From a virus: a stretch of DNA of 23,684 bases. Under the pieces are notes generated by a model that was not told the origin of the DNA, did no database searches, and worked only from the letters and a program-made list of their open reading frames with translations. The DNA is taken from the UHGV virus genome UHGV-0175797; one strand, 5' to 3'. Made by a program: the position numbers and the translations under genes. Shown piece by piece: positions 3,285 through 10,856 of this stretch (positions are counted from its first letter, which is position 1; every line of letters begins with the position of its first letter).

Positions 3285-3566
3285 GTGAAAAAAAATCTCA
3301 TTGCATGGGCGTGGTCGAGTGGTCTTATTGAGTTTGGTTACGTCCTGCCGGAAGGTGCATTGCCGATAGTTGCCGGAAAGCCCGCCACGGTACGGCATGT
3401 GATTGATGTTGTGGCGCGTCATGGACGCGATGAACAGGAACAGCTACTGGTTCCTGGAATACCGGAAGCGGTGACGGAAGAAGAAGCCTTTAATGCCATG
3501 GTTCAGTTCTGCCGTGAGGTCAGACGCCGGGTCAGTTATCCAAACAGAACGAGGGCCAGAGGATGA
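3285..3566 (+). CDS. hypothetical early protein (93 aa, GTG start)
   Basis: GTG start preceded by GGGAGGTG; the stop overlaps the next start (ATGA), indicating translational coupling. Confidence 0.5.
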   Translation: MKKNLIAWAWSSGLIEFGYVLPEGALPIVAGKPATVRHVIDVVARHGRDEQEQLLVPGIPEAVTEEEAFNAMVQFCREVRRRVSYPNRTRARG

Positions 3567-3835
3567 GTAAAGTCGTGCGCATTATTTTCGAATACAAGGA
3601 GGACGTTATCCGTAAAAACGCTGATGGAACAGTGCACATGGGGGTAAGTCTGGATATACGTTCAACCGGAATAAAGCAGAAAAATGATAGCCCCGCCATG
3701 ATTTTTGGGGTGGTTATGCTGGCAGAAAGCAGAAACTTCGCAGAGCTTGTGGCAATGAAAGCCAGTGCATTCATGAAAGACAGGGGCATGGCTTCCGGGG
3801 TTATTAACGGTAATGAATTTAATCAGCAGGGGTAA
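3563..3835 (+). CDS. hypothetical early protein (90 aa), paralogue A of a tandem pair
   Basis: N-terminus MSKVVRIIFEY is shared with the next gene (MSKVRVIFEF); contains a hydrophobic stretch AMIFGVVMLA. Confidence 0.5.
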   Translation: MSKVVRIIFEYKEDVIRKNADGTVHMGVSLDIRSTGIKQKNDSPAMIFGVVMLAESRNFAELVAMKASAFMKDRGMASGVINGNEFNQQG

Positions 3836-3839
3836 TTCC

Positions 3840-4133
3840 ATGAGCAAAGTACGCGTTATTTTTGAATTTGAGCATGTTTCGCATGACGAAAAACCGGCAG
3901 GCAATGACAGTGTTGAAGTGCATGAAAAGATTGGTGTGGATGTAAAAACAGAACGTGATACGGATAACAGGCCGACGTCACTCTGTGACGTTTATGCAAG
4001 TATTCTCCAGTATCACAGTCCTGAAATTATTCAGTTTCTCTCAGCGGAATTTCAGGCATCTGTACAGGCTTTTGGGGCGGATGCCATCATTAAACGCCAC
4101 CGCGTGCATAAAGCATCAGGCACACTGCAATAA
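3840..4133 (+). CDS. hypothetical early protein (97 aa), paralogue B of a tandem pair
   Basis: ATG 3840 is preferred over 3813 (which would overlap the previous gene by 23 nt); AGGGG lies upstream. N-terminus is paralogous to 3563..3835. Confidence 0.5.
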   Translation: MSKVRVIFEFEHVSHDEKPAGNDSVEVHEKIGVDVKTERDTDNRPTSLCDVYASILQYHSPEIIQFLSAEFQASVQAFGADAIIKRHRVHKASGTLQ

Positions 4134-5852: not shown

Positions 5853-6367
5853 TGTTCTTTAAAACATCAAACCCTTCCGCGCTGGCTGCGTGGCAAAAAT
5901 ACCAGCAGGACTGCCAGAAAGTTAAGGATGAGGCAAAACGCCTTGAGGCCGTGCTGAATGTTGCGTGCCGGTCGGTATTTGTATCCGGTATCAGTGGATT
6001 TTGCTTTAAGGGACTGCGTTTTACGGAGGACAAATATCCTTTTCATCGCGACTTATGGCGAAAACCGACTGCGTCGAATGGCTGGAGCTGCACACCGCGC
6101 ACATCACGTATCCCTAAAACCCTGCGTGTTGCCTCTGATGAACTGAACAGTCTGTGGCGTGAATATTCGCCCGTCACGTATGCCAGAACCGATGCGCTGT
6201 TGTTCTGGCTGGGTATTGATTTCTCGGCAATCCTGTTTGGCCCTGTGAAGTGGTTCTGCGTTGACGATGTGATTTACCTTCAGTGCGGCGTAAAACCCGC
6301 AAAACAGAAAATGACCGAAATACTGTCTGATGAGTTTTATGCTGCTGAAAAGCGAGTCAGGGGGTGA
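5852..6367 (+). CDS. hypothetical protein (171 aa)
   Basis: Translationally coupled to both neighbours. No recognisable motif. Confidence 0.55.
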   Translation: MFFKTSNPSALAAWQKYQQDCQKVKDEAKRLEAVLNVACRSVFVSGISGFCFKGLRFTEDKYPFHRDLWRKPTASNGWSCTPRTSRIPKTLRVASDELNSLWREYSPVTYARTDALLFWLGIDFSAILFGPVKWFCVDDVIYLQCGVKPAKQKMTEILSDEFYAAEKRVRG

Positions 6368-6370
6368 TGC

Positions 6371-6922
6371 ATGATGAAATTACAACCCATGGGACTAAAA
6401 GGTCGCGCCCCCGCTCATGTCCGTCCGTGGACACCTGAAGAAGATGCGCTGCTGATTGCGCTTTATTCATCCACCCCGGTTAAGGATATTGCTGCCAGAA
6501 TAAAAAGAACTGTCTGGGCTGTATATAACCGGACTGGTGTATTGCGCAGTTCATACCCGGAGTTACTGAAATATAAACACCCAAGATTTACACCTGATGA
6601 AGATAAGTTTATTCGAAAAAATGCCAGAACAATGACCTGCCAGCAAATGGGAGAATATCTCGGACGTAATAAAGATTCTGTCAGATGTCGGGCAGGAATG
6701 ATTGGTGCTGGATTAACAAAGTGCGGAGAGTTACGCCCCGGCACGCGCATATCTGATGATGATGTACGTCTTATACGTGCGCTGCGTGATTCCGATTACC
6801 CACGCCGTCTGTCATTCCGGGAAATTGGCGAAAAGTTTGGAATATCTGAACATTCTGCTCACGCAGTTTATTACCGTCGCCGGACTGCCGAGGACGCTGT
6901 ATTACGGGAGTTAACGCCATGA
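6371..6922 (+). CDS. DNA-binding protein with two Myb/SANT-like repeats and a C-terminal HTH
   Basis: Internal duplication: WTPEEDALLIALYSS...IAARIKRTVWAVYNRTGVL and FTPDEDKFIRKNARTMTCQQMGEYLGRNKDSVRCRAGMIG (SANT/Myb-type signature W/F-T-x-E/D-E-D ... R-T/N ... R), followed by LSFREIGEKFGISEHSAHAVYYRR. Confidence 0.6.
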   Translation: MMKLQPMGLKGRAPAHVRPWTPEEDALLIALYSSTPVKDIAARIKRTVWAVYNRTGVLRSSYPELLKYKHPRFTPDEDKFIRKNARTMTCQQMGEYLGRNKDSVRCRAGMIGAGLTKCGELRPGTRISDDDVRLIRALRDSDYPRRLSFREIGEKFGISEHSAHAVYYRRRTAEDAVLRELTP

Positions 6923-7251
6923 TAACGACCTTATTTGTTGAATCAGATGAACCTCTTGTGTGTGCCGCCGGAATGCCGCTCTGTGGCGGAACGCTGACCG
7001 GCGTTTATTTCGGGGATTTGCGCGGTTATCCCTGGCATTCACTGGATGACGCATTTCCGCCTGATATGGAGGCTGTCGTGCTGATTGTTCAGTATGGTGA
7101 CCAACAGGAACTGCGCATCGGCCATATGGGGTATGAAGGCTTTTTTATTGATGAAGAAACCGGAGCCTGCCTTGAAGATGAGGACGGACAGGTGACGCAC
7201 TGGTGCCATCTTTCGGCCTTGCCGGAATTACAGGGGATACATAATGGATGA
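6919..7251 (+). CDS. DUF551-like acidic phage protein (110 aa)
   Basis: C-terminal motif VTHWCHLSALPEL resembles the THWMPLPEPP signature of DUF551; the start overlaps the previous stop (ATGA). Confidence 0.5.
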   Translation: MITTLFVESDEPLVCAAGMPLCGGTLTGVYFGDLRGYPWHSLDDAFPPDMEAVVLIVQYGDQQELRIGHMGYEGFFIDEETGACLEDEDGQVTHWCHLSALPELQGIHNG

Positions 7252-7387
7252 GCAAATTGTTGAATGTCCCACCTGTGGAAATGAGGACCCGGAGTATCTG
7301 AAAGAGTGCCCACATTGTGGTGAGATAAAATGTAACCACTGCGATATGGGCGACGACACTGCATGTATAAATTGTGAGGATGAATAA
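7244..7387 (+). CDS. small zinc-ribbon protein (47 aa, four CxxC motifs); absent from the ORF track because it is under 60 aa
   Basis: ATG 7244 overlaps the previous gene's 3' end. Translation MDEQIVECPTCGNEDPEYLKECPHCGEIKCNHCDMGDDTACINCEDE has CPTC, CPHC, CNHC and CINC. Stop TAA at 7385-7387 is followed 1 nt later by the next ATG. Confidence 0.45.
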   Translation: MDEQIVECPTCGNEDPEYLKECPHCGEIKCNHCDMGDDTACINCEDE

Positions 7388-7388
7388 T

Positions 7389-7676
7389 ATGGAAAAAGAA
7401 ATCAAATTTGCGCCTAAATCTATCGACGAAGAACTGGCTAAAATCGGCATGCTTGAACGTATGCGGGACATTATCGAATATGCGATAAAAGAAAATCTTG
7501 CAGCCAGAGAAGCCCTTTTGATAATGGAGCGGGAGATTAACCTGATTAAGGATGCTGTATCTCTGGATAATAAAATAGCCCGCGAGGAATACGTTCGCCG
7601 CAGGCTCGGTGTTGATGGTTCAGCAATTCTTACATCTGAACATTATGCAAAAATTTTTAATCTTTTTCAGCGGTAA
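7389..7676 (+). CDS. hypothetical helical protein (95 aa) in a low-GC segment
   Basis: ATG 7389 is coupled to the preceding stop; the region is AT-rich; the 3' end overlaps a convergent minus-strand ORF by 20 nt. Confidence 0.5.
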   Translation: MEKEIKFAPKSIDEELAKIGMLERMRDIIEYAIKENLAAREALLIMEREINLIKDAVSLDNKIAREEYVRRRLGVDGSAILTSEHYAKIFNLFQR

Positions 7677-7896
7677 TCCCCATACAGGCCCGGAGATTGT
7701 CGAAATGCCAGTCGGTATTAATATATGAGCCATCCTGGATATCTTCTGTATTTTCCGGGGTAGAGTTTTTTTGAGCGAGATTGATAATATGTATTGCCTC
7801 CTCACGGGAAATCAGCCCCTTATCGAACAGGGTTACCATAAGATTTCCAGCCATTGTGAATGCGGCAACATCAAGTGCATTTTTTATATCTGACAT
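7657..7896 (-). CDS. hypothetical small protein (79 aa), reverse-oriented low-GC gene inside the early operon
   Basis: Minus-strand ATG at 7896 with AAGGA about 9 nt upstream; AT-rich; convergent with and antisense to the early operon. Confidence 0.45.
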   Translation of the reverse strand: MSDIKNALDVAAFTMAGNLMVTLFDKGLISREEAIHIINLAQKNSTPENTEDIQDGSYINTDWHFDNLRACMGITAEKD

Positions 7897-7924
7897 AGAT
7901 TTTTCCTTTTATGTTAATTGACAT

Positions 7925-7953
7925 GGCGGTGCGGTAACACCGCCCATTTTTTA
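7925..7953 (+). terminator. rho-independent terminator-like hairpin (GGCGGTG-cggtaa-CACCGCC followed by CATTTTTTAT)
   Basis: 7-bp GC-rich perfect stem with a 6-nt loop and a T-tract on the + strand, located between the low-GC cassette and the gemA-like gene. Confidence 0.55.
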
Positions 7954-7966
7954 TGGAGCCACGATA

Positions 7967-8479
7967 ATGAATCGCGCTTCCCTGATTACCTTAATACATG
8001 TCGCAAAACGCGATCTACAGCTTGACCATGATACCTATACATCCGCGCTGCTGGCAGCCACCGGCAAATCCAGTTGCCGTGATATGTCACCCGGTGAGTT
8101 ATCCCGCGTGCTGGATGTTTTCAAAAAACGCGGTTTTAAAGTGCGTCAGAAGCCGGTTAACCGGGCCTTAAAACCGGGTACGGTGACCGCCAAAATTCGC
8201 GCCATCTGGAAAGTGATGCACCGGCAGGGATTTATCTCTGATGGCGGGGAAACGGCCCTTAACCGCTGGGTGAAATCGCAGACGGCCGCGCAGAACGACG
8301 GCGAAGGTGTGGCTAACTGGCAGTGGCTGGAGCAACAACCCGCGCTGGCCTCTGATGTGCTGGAGCGTCTCAAACGCTGGCACCGCCGCAAAATGCTGGC
8401 AGCCCTGGATATGTCGGAACGTGCAGTGATGAGTTATGAGCGTGTTTGCAGGCTGTATGAAAAATCATTCCCCCGTTAA
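7967..8479 (+). CDS. gemA: GemA-like regulatory protein (Mu gp16 / DUF1018 family)
   Basis: The N-terminal pattern LITLIHVAKRDLQLDHDTYTSALLAATGKSS...ELSRVLDVF matches the GemA family signature; position immediately before the Mor/C-family gene as in Mu. Confidence 0.65.
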   Translation: MNRASLITLIHVAKRDLQLDHDTYTSALLAATGKSSCRDMSPGELSRVLDVFKKRGFKVRQKPVNRALKPGTVTAKIRAIWKVMHRQGFISDGGETALNRWVKSQTAAQNDGEGVANWQWLEQQPALASDVLERLKRWHRRKMLAALDMSERAVMSYERVCRLYEKSFPR

Positions 8480-8483
8480 CCCC

Positions 8484-8515
8484 AAATCCCGCCACAGCGC
8501 GGGATTTTTATTTTA
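8484..8515 (+). terminator. rho-independent terminator-like hairpin (AAATCCCGC-cacagc-GCGGGATTT followed by TTATTTT)
   Basis: Perfect 9-bp stem plus T-tract immediately after the gemA-like stop and about 35 bp before the Mor/C-family start. Confidence 0.65.
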
Positions 8516-8549
8516 AACTTGCCCTGTGTAATGATGACCGGAGGCGGGT

Positions 8550-8972
8550 ATGGCTGAAACACAGATGAGCATGTTTGGTGACAGCGAACAGCTGCACGCG
8601 CTGATTGACCGTCTGGATGATATTCCTGATGATGAGCTGAAAAAGAACTGGCCCGGCACGCTGCGGGACCTGGTTGATGTGATCAGTGCTGAACTGCACC
8701 GTCAGGGGATTGAACCTGCTCAGGCGGGAATGCTTGCCCGTAAGGTTGCAGCCGCACAGGCCGGGTACATGGGCGGGCGTGGTTATTATCTCCCGGTCGG
8801 TGAATCCCTTTTCACCGAACTGCGCAATAATGAAATTTTTTCCCGCTGGAGCCAGGGCGAAAAAATTGAAACCCTGCGCCGCCACTACCAGATGTCAGAG
8901 ACGCAGATTTACTCCGTTATCCGCAACCAGCGTCGCCTGCATCAGGAGCGCACGCAGCCCCGGCTTTTCTGA
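8550..8972 (+). CDS. Mor/C-family transcriptional activator (middle/late gene activator), 140 aa
   Basis: Aligns by eye with Mu Mor across the family-conserved segments (FGD, L..L+D.L..EL.R.G+.PA.A, GG..YY+P.G..L, C-terminal HTH ...Y.+S...+Y.VIR..RRL). Length and position (after a terminator, directly before the lysis gene) are more like Mu C. GGAGG RBS. Confidence 0.75.
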   Translation: MAETQMSMFGDSEQLHALIDRLDDIPDDELKKNWPGTLRDLVDVISAELHRQGIEPAQAGMLARKVAAAQAGYMGGRGYYLPVGESLFTELRNNEIFSRWSQGEKIETLRRHYQMSETQIYSVIRNQRRLHQERTQPRLF

Positions 8973-9043
8973 TATTCCGCAAATCCTGCCCCCTTTTCCT
9001 CACGGTTACGCTGACTCAGAGAACACCATGAGACAGCGTAACA

Positions 9044-10007: not shown

Positions 10008-10290
10008 ATGGCTGGCTGACTGCCTGGTCCCTCCCGCGCCGCAGCCGTTCACGTTTGGTGCATCGGTCACTTACAACCTGCAACTGCTGGCGGTGATTAA
10101 AAACTGCAACGTGGACAAGGCCAGCATCCGCCGTCTGGAGACACAGCGACAGCAGGCACCGTTGCCATTAGCCGCGATGACTTTGAAGACGACAATCTTG
10201 GCATCTACTCCCCGTTGTTCCAGGAGATGGGGCGCGCTGCGGCGGCACAACCGGATGAACTGGTCTTTGCTGCACTGCGTGATGGTCTGA
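9838..10290 (+). CDS. o-spanin (Rz1-like lipoprotein) in the +1 frame overlapping the i-spanin; its 3' part reads out of frame into the major-head remnant
   Basis: Lipobox LTGC preceded by a hydrophobic core (CLLPLCLCLMMW) and followed by a Pro-rich mature region (VPVPPVPIPAEW...PPAPQPF). An alternative TTG start at 9883 gives a 23-aa signal peptide. The ORF has no stop until 10290, i.e. it runs across the proposed deletion junction. Confidence 0.45.
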   Translation: MKNSRTCSTARNSRALSAGHWQRCLLPLCLCLMMWLTGCGGPSVKFVPVPPVPIPAEWLADCLVPPAPQPFTFGASVTYNLQLLAVIKNCNVDKASIRRLETQRQQAPLPLAAMTLKTTILASTPRCSRRWGALRRHNRMNWSLLHCVMV

Positions 10291-10856
10291 ATGCGGCCTG
10301 CTATGACGGCCAGAACTTCTTTGATACCGAACACCCTGTTTACCCCAAAGTGGATGGCTCCGGTGATGCACAGATGGTCAGCAATATGTTTGTGGCAAAA
10401 ACCGGCTCTGTCGGTGCACAGGCGGATTACAGCGGCCCGGCCTGGTATCTGCTTGACTGCTCCCGCGCGGTAAAACCGCTGATTTATCAGGATCGCCGCA
10501 AGGCCGAACTGGTTGCCCAGACAAAAGTCGATGAAGGCCGTGCGTTTACTGATAACGAGTTTGTGTTCGGTGCTTCCGCCCGTCGCAATGTGGGCTACGG
10601 CTTCTGGCAGATGGCCTACATGATGCAGTCACCGCTGACGCTGGATGCGCTGTGGCACGGCTGGTCAGCCATGCGTGACTTTAAGGCTGACGGTGGCCGC
10701 AAACTCGGCATCAAACCCACCCATATTGTTGTCCCCACCTCGCTGGAAAAACAGGCGGTGCAGCTGCTGGAGCGCGAGCTGTTCGCGGACGGTAACACCA
10801 CCGTCTCTAACGAGATGAAGGGCAAGCTGGAGCTGGTTGTCGCGGATTATCTGTAA
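10101..10856 (+). pseudogene. 5'-truncated major head subunit remnant (Mu gpT family), C-terminal two-thirds only
   Basis: Frame 0 is open from the stop at 10098-10100. Similarity to the Mu-type major head protein begins around ...ISRDDFEDDNLGIYSPLFQEMGRAAAAQPDELVFAALRDGLNAACYDGQNFFDTEHPVYP and runs to the C-terminus. There is no ATG/GTG in frame before TTG 10215 / ATG 10227, and no N-terminal about 90 aa. Confidence 0.6.

Follow-up and report, generated by a model that had tools for sequence, protein, structure and literature searches.

An open reading frame (ORF) of 47 codons at positions 7244-7387 of the viral genome UHGV-0175797 is almost certainly a real gene and a homologue of gp13 (formerly E14) of phage Mu. 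The DNA analysed, a stretch of 23,684 nt that we call the window, is a Mu-like prophage of Escherichia coli, 99.8-99.9% identical over the region concerned to prophages in strains HH35 and DETEC-S792. The ORF, absent from the gene track of the window, had been put forward as a gene in an initial annotation, a proposal now borne out by its conservation relative to Mu, by its match to the phage protein family PHROG 5584 and by the retention of its cysteine motif in homologues. Rather than an element of a new kind, it is a short form of a Mu gene family that is known and annotated but uncharacterised. The best explanation of the data as a whole is a Mu gp13-type gene encoding a two-metal, acidic, protein-binding module, an account to which, taken in its entirety, we give an even chance of being right.

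Homology and synteny with Mu gp13

A tblastn search matched the ORF to positions 7528-7650 of phage Mu with 87.8% identity. This segment is Mup13 (NP_050617.1), a 60-aa hypothetical protein whose gene is followed in Mu by gp14, gp15 (in reverse orientation), GemA and Mor. The match to the PHROG 5584 profile (E = 3.1e-26) places residues 7-47 of the product on profile positions 20-60 of 60, and 36 residues of this 41-residue core are identical in Mu gp13. The order of genes in the window is transposase A, B, gam, Gp11_C, a gp12-like gene, a gene for a 183-aa SANT/Myb-like protein, a 110-aa gene and the ORF, followed by gp14-like, gp15-like (reverse), gemA, mor and lysozyme genes (Table 1). The defining marks of the Mu gp13/E14 family are found in the window protein: the profile match, the spacing and signature of the eight cysteines (Cys8) and the place in the early region. 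In its comparison with Mu, the initial annotation was right to set the ORF apart from Com; it missed the direct Mu homologue, gp13/E14, upstream of gp14-gp15-gemA-mor. A literature search returned no paper giving a function for Mu gp13/E14, and none linking gp13 to a defence system.

The two proteins have in common the Cys8 core, the position upstream of gp14, gp15 (reverse), gemA and mor, and the TAATATG junction to gp14. They differ at the N-terminus: the 60-aa Mu gp13 carries a 19-residue extension (MENNKTSYSWLGKFTTVKQ) and its gene overlaps gp12, whereas the 47-aa window protein lacks this segment, begins with an unrelated 6-residue stretch (MDEQIV) and is encoded just after the 110-aa gene. 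The extension of Mu gp13 varies in other members too, and would not be family-defining. Two extra genes (6371-7251), neither of them present in Mu, part gp12 from gp13 in the window; the first encodes the 183-aa protein, which is SANT/Myb- and helix-turn-helix-like and matches PHROG 323 ('transcriptional regulator, D5-like', E = 2e-52), and the second the 110-aa protein, with a weak match to DUF551.

Selection on the protein is visible at the nucleotide level. Of the 22 nucleotide differences in the 42 codons shared with Mu, 17 affect the third position; 15 of the codon changes are synonymous and 5 are not. We compared window genes with Mu genes by the Nei-Gojobori method, which gave pS 0.70, pN 0.064 and a dN/dS of about 0.03 for the gp13 core, at 88% amino-acid identity. 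Synonymous divergence was saturated for all genes compared (pS 0.61-0.79), and the other proteins were far less similar to their Mu counterparts (gam 56%, gp11 64%, gp12 55%, gp14 49%, gemA 49%, mor 30% and lysozyme 44% identity). The corresponding dN/dS values were 0.14-0.50 for gam, gp11, gp14, gemA, mor and lys, dS being saturated for gp12, which yielded no ratio. With synonymous sites saturated and 88% identity retained, gp13 stands out as the most constrained early-region protein, and its similarity between the window and Mu is not due to recent transfer.

Composition alone makes a more modest argument. Of the 456 segments of 30 aa or more that lie between stop codons in the six frames of the window, only the ORF has four CxxC pairs, but the argument is weakened because, when the mononucleotides of the window were shuffled 200 times, 3 of the shuffles also reached four CxxC within a 41-aa span somewhere. 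Conservation is what decides the case.

The ORF starts with ATG, comprises 47 codons and a TAA stop, and encodes MDEQIVECPTCGNEDPEYLKECPHCGEIKCNHCDMGDDTACINCEDE. Its four CxxC pairs (CPTC 7265-7276, CPHC 7307-7318, CNHC 7331-7342 and CINC 7364-7375) are spaced C-x2-C-x10-C-x2-C-x4-C-x2-C-x7-C-x2-C. The frame opens at 7196 and has no in-frame start codon before 7244, where it overlaps the stop codon of the upstream gene (TGA, 7249-7251); the same 8-nt overlap geometry, judged from gene coordinates, is found at loci L011 and L015, in unrelated contexts. At the 3' end, a GAGGA sequence (7376-7380) lies 8 nt before the next ATG (7389), and the stop codon (7385-7387) is separated from that ATG by a single T (7388); this junction, GAATAATATG, is also present in Mu. 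The initial annotation had correctly given the coordinates, the four CxxC pairs, the overlap with the upstream gene and the single base to the next ATG, and its picture of a gene packed into the early operon holds. The junctions overlap or abut, and the ORF has a Shine-Dalgarno (SD)-like sequence of its own. No promoter-like or terminator-like motif lies between the ORF and its flanking genes. We rejected an RNA-based explanation of the locus, the structure of the start region being no stronger than in shuffled sequences (z = -0.4) and an Rfam scan of positions 6000-9000 yielding no match near the ORF.

The 47-aa form was not called by the NCBI Prokaryotic Genome Annotation Pipeline (PGAP) in the three RefSeq E. 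coli genomes inspected that carry the identical sequence, where a gap of 137 nt stands in its place (L001 8352-8490, L002 3352-3490 and L023 1508-1646). RefSeq does annotate the 60-aa Mu form, as in E. coli W (WP_000429765.1), and the 47-aa form is called on Salmonella GenBank assemblies with unchanged synteny. The omission looks like a systematic miss of a small ORF.

Table 1. Features of the gp13-type gene and its surroundings in the window
Feature	Position	Strand	Remarks
gp13-type gene, acidic Cys8 mini-protein	7244..7387	+	PHROG 5584, E = 3e-26; 36/41 core residues shared with Mu gp13
Candidate metal site 1: CPTCG ... CPHCG (C8, C11, C22, C25), rubredoxin/zinc-ribbon-type knuckle pair	7265..7318	+	
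Second half: K29-CNHC-DMGDD-TA-CINC (C30, C33, C41, C44)	7328..7375	+	contains signature KCxxCDMGDD
8-nt overlap ATGGATGA, gp13-type start with stop of upstream 110-aa gene	7244..7251	+	
Shine-Dalgarno-like AGGGGA	7232..7237	+	6 nt before ATG, within 3' end of upstream gene
Junction to gp14-type gene	7376..7391	+	SD-like GAGGA in last codons, TAA, one T, ATG
Upstream 110-aa gene	6919..7251	+	PHROG 6925, weak DUF551-like; Mu has gp12 at the equivalent place
gp14-type gene, 95 aa	7389..7676	+	PHROG 6075; usual downstream partner in Mu-type phages
gp15-type gene, 79 aa	7657..7896	-	PHROG 32893; third member of exchangeable cassette
gemA (gp16), synteny anchor	7967..8479	+	Pfam GemA, E = 1.8e-28

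An acidic eight-cysteine family and its predicted fold

A single-sequence, word-indexed search found only 10 close relatives of the 47-aa protein. An exhaustive profile search extended this to 157 representatives of 50%-identity clusters at E ≤1e-3, about 70 of them small proteins matching the whole core, and a profile built from trimmed cores reached 307 clusters at 90% identity (44-82 aa). The family thus comprises at least 307 clusters. Their source names are almost always "hypothetical protein"; none is functional and none comes with a meaningful Pfam assignment.

In an alignment of 47 diverse members, ten residues are invariant (C8, C11, C22, C25, K29, C30, C33, G36, C41 and C44) and three are nearly so (G12, D34 and D37). 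The family consensus is xxECxxCGNxxPxxLxxCPxCGxxKCxxCDMGDDVxCxxCE, with KCxxCDMGDD as its signature. The cysteines are spaced CxxC-x(8-18)-CxxC-x4-CxxC-x7-CxxC, where the loop between the first two knuckles varies from 8 to 18 residues across the family and the x4 and x7 spacers are kept in all but a few members. The conservation of the eight cysteines in relatives, which the initial annotation had proposed as the check on its reading, is complete in this alignment and extends to further loci. Neither of the two observations that it named as refuting, a loss of the pattern in homologous regions or a frame broken in close relatives with intact neighbours, overturned the reading. A subgroup from Burkholderiales and IMG/VR (L040-L048, L104-L117) combines an 18-residue first loop with a ninth cysteine (KCCMCDMGDD) and keeps all eight of the others; many of its members lie on viral contigs of 37-60 kb. 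One relative on a metagenome contig from ENA (P0009) starts MSKLLNVPPVEM, which corresponds to the +1 frame of the usual N-terminus; a one-base indel removes its first CxxC, reflecting either a sequencing error or a pseudogene.

The second hallmark of the family is its charge. The window protein contains 14 Asp and Glu residues vs. 2 Lys, with a net charge of -10 over the core. Net charge is -3 or lower in 44 of the 47 family cores, typically between -5 and -10.

No family in Pfam, NCBIfam or the PDB matched the 47-aa protein above threshold. Matches below threshold cover only residues 2-26 and are to one-metal C4 ribbons or rubredoxin-type knuckles. The best in Pfam was Zn_ribbon_LapB (E = 0.005, 16.8 bits vs. 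a gathering cut-off of 25.7), followed by DZR (14.9 vs. 27.3 bits), neither of which passes; in the PDB, the first half alone resembled RadA, L40e, L32, rubrerythrin and LysW. We accordingly rejected membership in the LysW, TraR/DksA and generic ribbon families, for which there were sub-threshold matches only. Lar restriction-alleviation proteins are also small prophage early proteins with CxxC pairs, and this assignment was rejected as well (PF14354, E = 0.43, 11.3 vs. 28.6 bits; TIGR03655, E = 0.2, 12 vs. 39.6 bits), as was YdaE of the Rac prophage, a "zinc-binding protein" from a comparable early-left operon whose translated sequence is unrelated.

AlphaFold2 run with the 47-sequence alignment gave a confidence score (pLDDT) of 81, superseding a run with 10 sequences (pLDDT 59). 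The model has a beta-hairpin (19-21/28-30) bearing the second knuckle and a short helix at 42-46. Foldseek matches to it were weak (best E = 0.46) and mostly of the RING, PHD, FYVE and AN1 classes. We think it very likely that the eight cysteines build a two-metal fold, the metal probably being zinc. Site 1 would probably consist of C8/C11/C22/C25, because these residues form CxxCG...CPxCG motifs of the rubredoxin type separated by the variable loop, and because similarity to one-metal ribbons is confined to this half; site 2 would then probably be C30/C33/C41/C44.

This arrangement can be set against two known types of finger. Classical C4 ribbons and rubredoxin knuckles (Zn_ribbon_LapB, DZR, Zn_Ribbon_1, the RadA N-terminal finger, L40e and L32) align to residues 8-26 (CxxCG-x10-CPxCG) and have four ligands, whereas gp13-type proteins add a family-specific half, KCxxCDMGDDxxCxxC, with four more cysteines. 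In cross-brace two-zinc fingers (RING, PHD, FYVE, AN1 and prokaryotic RING), the general eight-ligand pattern accommodates the ligand spacing of the window protein, and a RING/PHD-like cross-brace may be an alternative arrangement of the eight cysteines. The second loop is shorter here than is usual in such fingers, no fold match was significant and there is no ubiquitin-system context.

The domain also occurs in fusions, always at the C-terminus and behind N-terminal parts that are unrelated to one another. In L060-L063 (IMG/VR, about 3368-4126), an N-terminal domain of roughly 190 aa, corresponding to PHROG 6418, precedes the core in one continuous frame; this domain, found in some Mu-like prophages, has no Pfam match. 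In one other group the N-terminal part gave a near-threshold match to Phage_ProQ_C_like (PF24203, E = 1e-5, just below the cut-off). We rejected the fusion partners as a Rosetta-stone clue to function, as they are heterogeneous and only this last match puts a name to any of them.

Distribution and genomic context

The gene is present in 49 of 5,426 complete E. coli genomes. Within Mu-like prophages, gp13-gp14-gp15 is exchanged as a block: a related prophage is present in 144 E. coli genomes, of which only 14 carry this cassette, and in the other 130 homology ends at a mosaic breakpoint at about 7235-7257, at the 3' end of the 110-aa gene. The slot before gemA is filled in these cases by other genes, for example four of 116, 110, 65 and 98 aa (L003) or a single one of 103 aa (L004). 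Elsewhere among Mu-like phages, gp13 is kept where gp12 is replaced. The related prophage of E. coli 2012EL-2448 carries an IS1A insertion between its gp15-like gene and gemA (L023 2206-2903).

Overall, the domain was seen in Mu-like, lambdoid and virulent phages, in phage-plasmids and in integrative elements of Gamma- and Betaproteobacteria, the two classes to which all species-representative genomes with the motif belong; IMG/VR contributed 69 loci. In the virulent Klebsiella phage Kpn BU9, a gp13-type gene lies between a 264-aa gene and an exonuclease gene, and its counterpart in a lambdoid prophage is flanked by a 101-aa gene on one side and a DEDDh exonuclease gene on the other, the latter followed by a 72-aa gene, probably xis, and int. 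The domain is carried by 52-kb Klebsiella plasmids, which are probably phage-plasmids, and by an island of Thauera. It forms the C-terminus of a 316-aa protein in an integrative element, beside a Dam-type methyltransferase and DnaB, lies just downstream of a divergent CI-like repressor in a small element of marine Gammaproteobacteria, and in one context is found upstream of a giant Eco57I/SNF2 protein. Every one of these settings is an early or accessory region of a mobile element.

When we clustered the three genes on each side of 37 distinct cores, no neighbour recurred outside Mu-type phages, and the idea of using a conserved neighbour as a functional clue was dropped. Exonuclease genes lie close by in two independent contexts, which is too sparse to interpret: a DEDDh Rv2179c-like exonuclease directly downstream in the lambdoid prophage (L011 6164-6781), and, in Kpn BU9 (L008 735-1241, 4154-5299), a DEDDh-family exonuclease three genes upstream and another exonuclease directly downstream.

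Several other features of the window are worth recording. The gp14-like and gp15-like genes converge, their 3' ends overlapping by 20 nt, and early-operon transcription on the + strand would be antisense to the gp15-like gene. Terminator-like hairpins with T runs are present on the + strand at 7925-7944, in the gap between the gp15-like gene and gemA, and at 8484-8507, between gemA and mor; in Mu, unlike in the window, gemA and mor overlap without a gap. The prophage is colinear with its intact relative L001 only up to position 10151. In the region that follows (10151-10856), the ORF at 10215-10856 encodes no more than the last two-thirds of gpT, the major head protein (positions 94-289 of the 289 in the profile). 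This copy of the prophage is probably defective, since it seems to have lost its terminase, portal, protease/scaffold and TraR-like genes.

Possible modes of action

We propose the following scheme. The gp13 (E14) gene would be transcribed together with the rest of the early operon (A, B, gam, gp11, gp12 ... gemA, mor) and translated from its own SD sequence within the end of the upstream gene. The eight cysteines would hold two metal ions, most likely through C8/C11 with C22/C25 and C30/C33 with C41/C44, and the resulting fold would display the invariant Lys and the near-invariant D-M-G-D-D loop, after which comes a short acidic tail at the C-terminus. The product would not bind nucleic acid; as a self-contained module, it would dock, at an early stage of the lytic cycle, onto a bacterial protein that is itself conserved and plausibly a basic factor in DNA or RNA handling. 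Nucleic-acid binding is made unlikely by the strong negative charge, and we hold a protein-binding over a nucleic-acid-binding role with moderate confidence. The gp13-type gene behaves as a modular unit independent of its neighbours and is subject to very strong purifying selection. As the family evolves slowly, the balance leans towards a conserved host protein as the putative target rather than a defence component.

The strongest competitor is an anti-defence function, in which the acidic mini-protein would block a host immunity nuclease or sensor, for instance as a nucleic-acid mimic. The initial annotation had suggested a host-factor or defence-inhibitor role, with which the acidity, the spread across mobile elements and the variable accessory region are all compatible. 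The cassette is exchangeable, with other genes in its place in 130 of 144 related E. coli prophages, and the strong negative charge is conserved. Distant members lie beside the orphan Dam-type methyltransferase of the integrative element, upstream of the giant Eco57I/SNF2 protein, or near GmrSD_N and ParE/Phd genes. In addition, the early region of Mu holds Gam and E6/Mup07, the latter reported as the counter-defence gene gnarl2 (bioRxiv 10.1101/2023.04.06.535777); as that report shows, this region encodes host-modifying accessory functions, and the report contains no statement on gp13. On the other hand, a dN/dS of 0.03 and a rigid signature across Gamma- and Betaproteobacteria suit a housekeeping target better than a fast-evolving defence system, and no known anti-defence family came up above threshold in the Pfam, NCBIfam and PDB searches. 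We consider anti-defence a possible but distinctly minority explanation, and a role in either anti-defence or host takeover is likewise tentative.

A second alternative is that gp13 acts as a dedicated partner or regulatory subunit of a cassette neighbour, either gp14 downstream or the upstream gene. Homologues of gp13 and gp14 occur in an identical set of 14 Mu-type phage records, the TAATATG junction is conserved, gp15 moves with both in the exchanged block, and some prophages fuse the domain to the upstream 190-aa domain (PHROG 6418). This explanation is nonetheless unlikely: in five Mu-like loci gp14 is missing and another gene, of 108 aa, comes after gp13, the 37 distinct cores share no recurrent neighbour family outside Mu-type phages, the N-terminal fusion partners are unrelated to one another and to gp12, and gp13 is far more conserved than gp14 (88% vs. 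49% identity).

Small cysteine-rich phage proteins also include nucleic-acid-binding regulators: Mu Com is a translational activator of mom, and Ogr of P2 is a transcription activator. A regulatory zinc finger of this kind would account for the likeness of the first half to the C4 ribbons of RadA and ribosomal proteins, and for the fusion of some relatives to the ProQ C-terminal-like domain. The charge of the cores speaks against it, as does the acidic nature of the conserved surface motif DMGDD. Com, although likewise a small Mu protein with cysteines, is basic (rich in Lys and Arg), has four cysteines for zinc and is encoded at the right end beside mom; BLASTP aligned it to the window protein over 8 residues only (E = 0.13). 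The identity with Com was rejected on all these grounds, namely the lack of sequence similarity, the basic character of Com and the place of the ORF in the early region, and we regard a nucleic-acid-binding regulator in general as very improbable.

Less probable still is a redox or carrier protein, whether an iron-binding, rubredoxin-like electron carrier or an acidic carrier resembling LysW with a modified C-terminal Glu. The CxxCG ... CPxCG pairs are classic rubredoxin knuckles, the C-terminal Glu is acidic as in such a carrier, and there are weak matches to Zn_ribbon_LapB, rubrerythrin and LysW, but all of them lie under the family cut-offs, the aromatic core of rubredoxin is absent, and none of the contexts inspected contains a redox partner or an ATP-grasp ligase. 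Finally, that the ORF arose by chance, or that the real genes are the longer opposite-strand ORFs (7089-7364, 91 aa; 7145-7471, 108 aa), is hardly credible despite the shuffles that reach four CxxC and the missing PGAP call, and is refuted by the pattern of conservation: the 17 of 22 differences from Mu at third positions of the + frame would be first positions in antisense, stops interrupt the antisense frames in Mu, L002/L005 or Kpn BU9, and the product of the ORF has a phage-family match of E = 3e-26 and hundreds of homologues that keep the motif.

To return to the acidic, protein-binding module, what is new here is the signature, breadth, unusual constraint and acidity of the Mu gp13 family, a domain family that is absent from Pfam, NCBIfam and the PDB and is spread across very different mobile elements. 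More speculatively, the family might be an unrecognised, widespread class of metal-stabilised acidic mini-proteins with which unrelated mobile elements (Mu-like, lambdoid and virulent phages, phage-plasmids and integrative conjugative elements) would neutralise one conserved proteobacterial DNA/RNA-handling or immunity protein, the invariant K...DMGDD loop serving as contact surface. On the practical side, the NCBI pipeline appears to miss the 47-aa form systematically. Mu is a classic model phage, and to our knowledge roughly half of its early-region genes, gp13 included, have never been assigned a function. As the most constrained early-region protein and a representative of a widely spread domain family, gp13 offers a tractable, cheap and well-defined target for functional work, with 47 residues, clear mutant designs and a model phage at hand.
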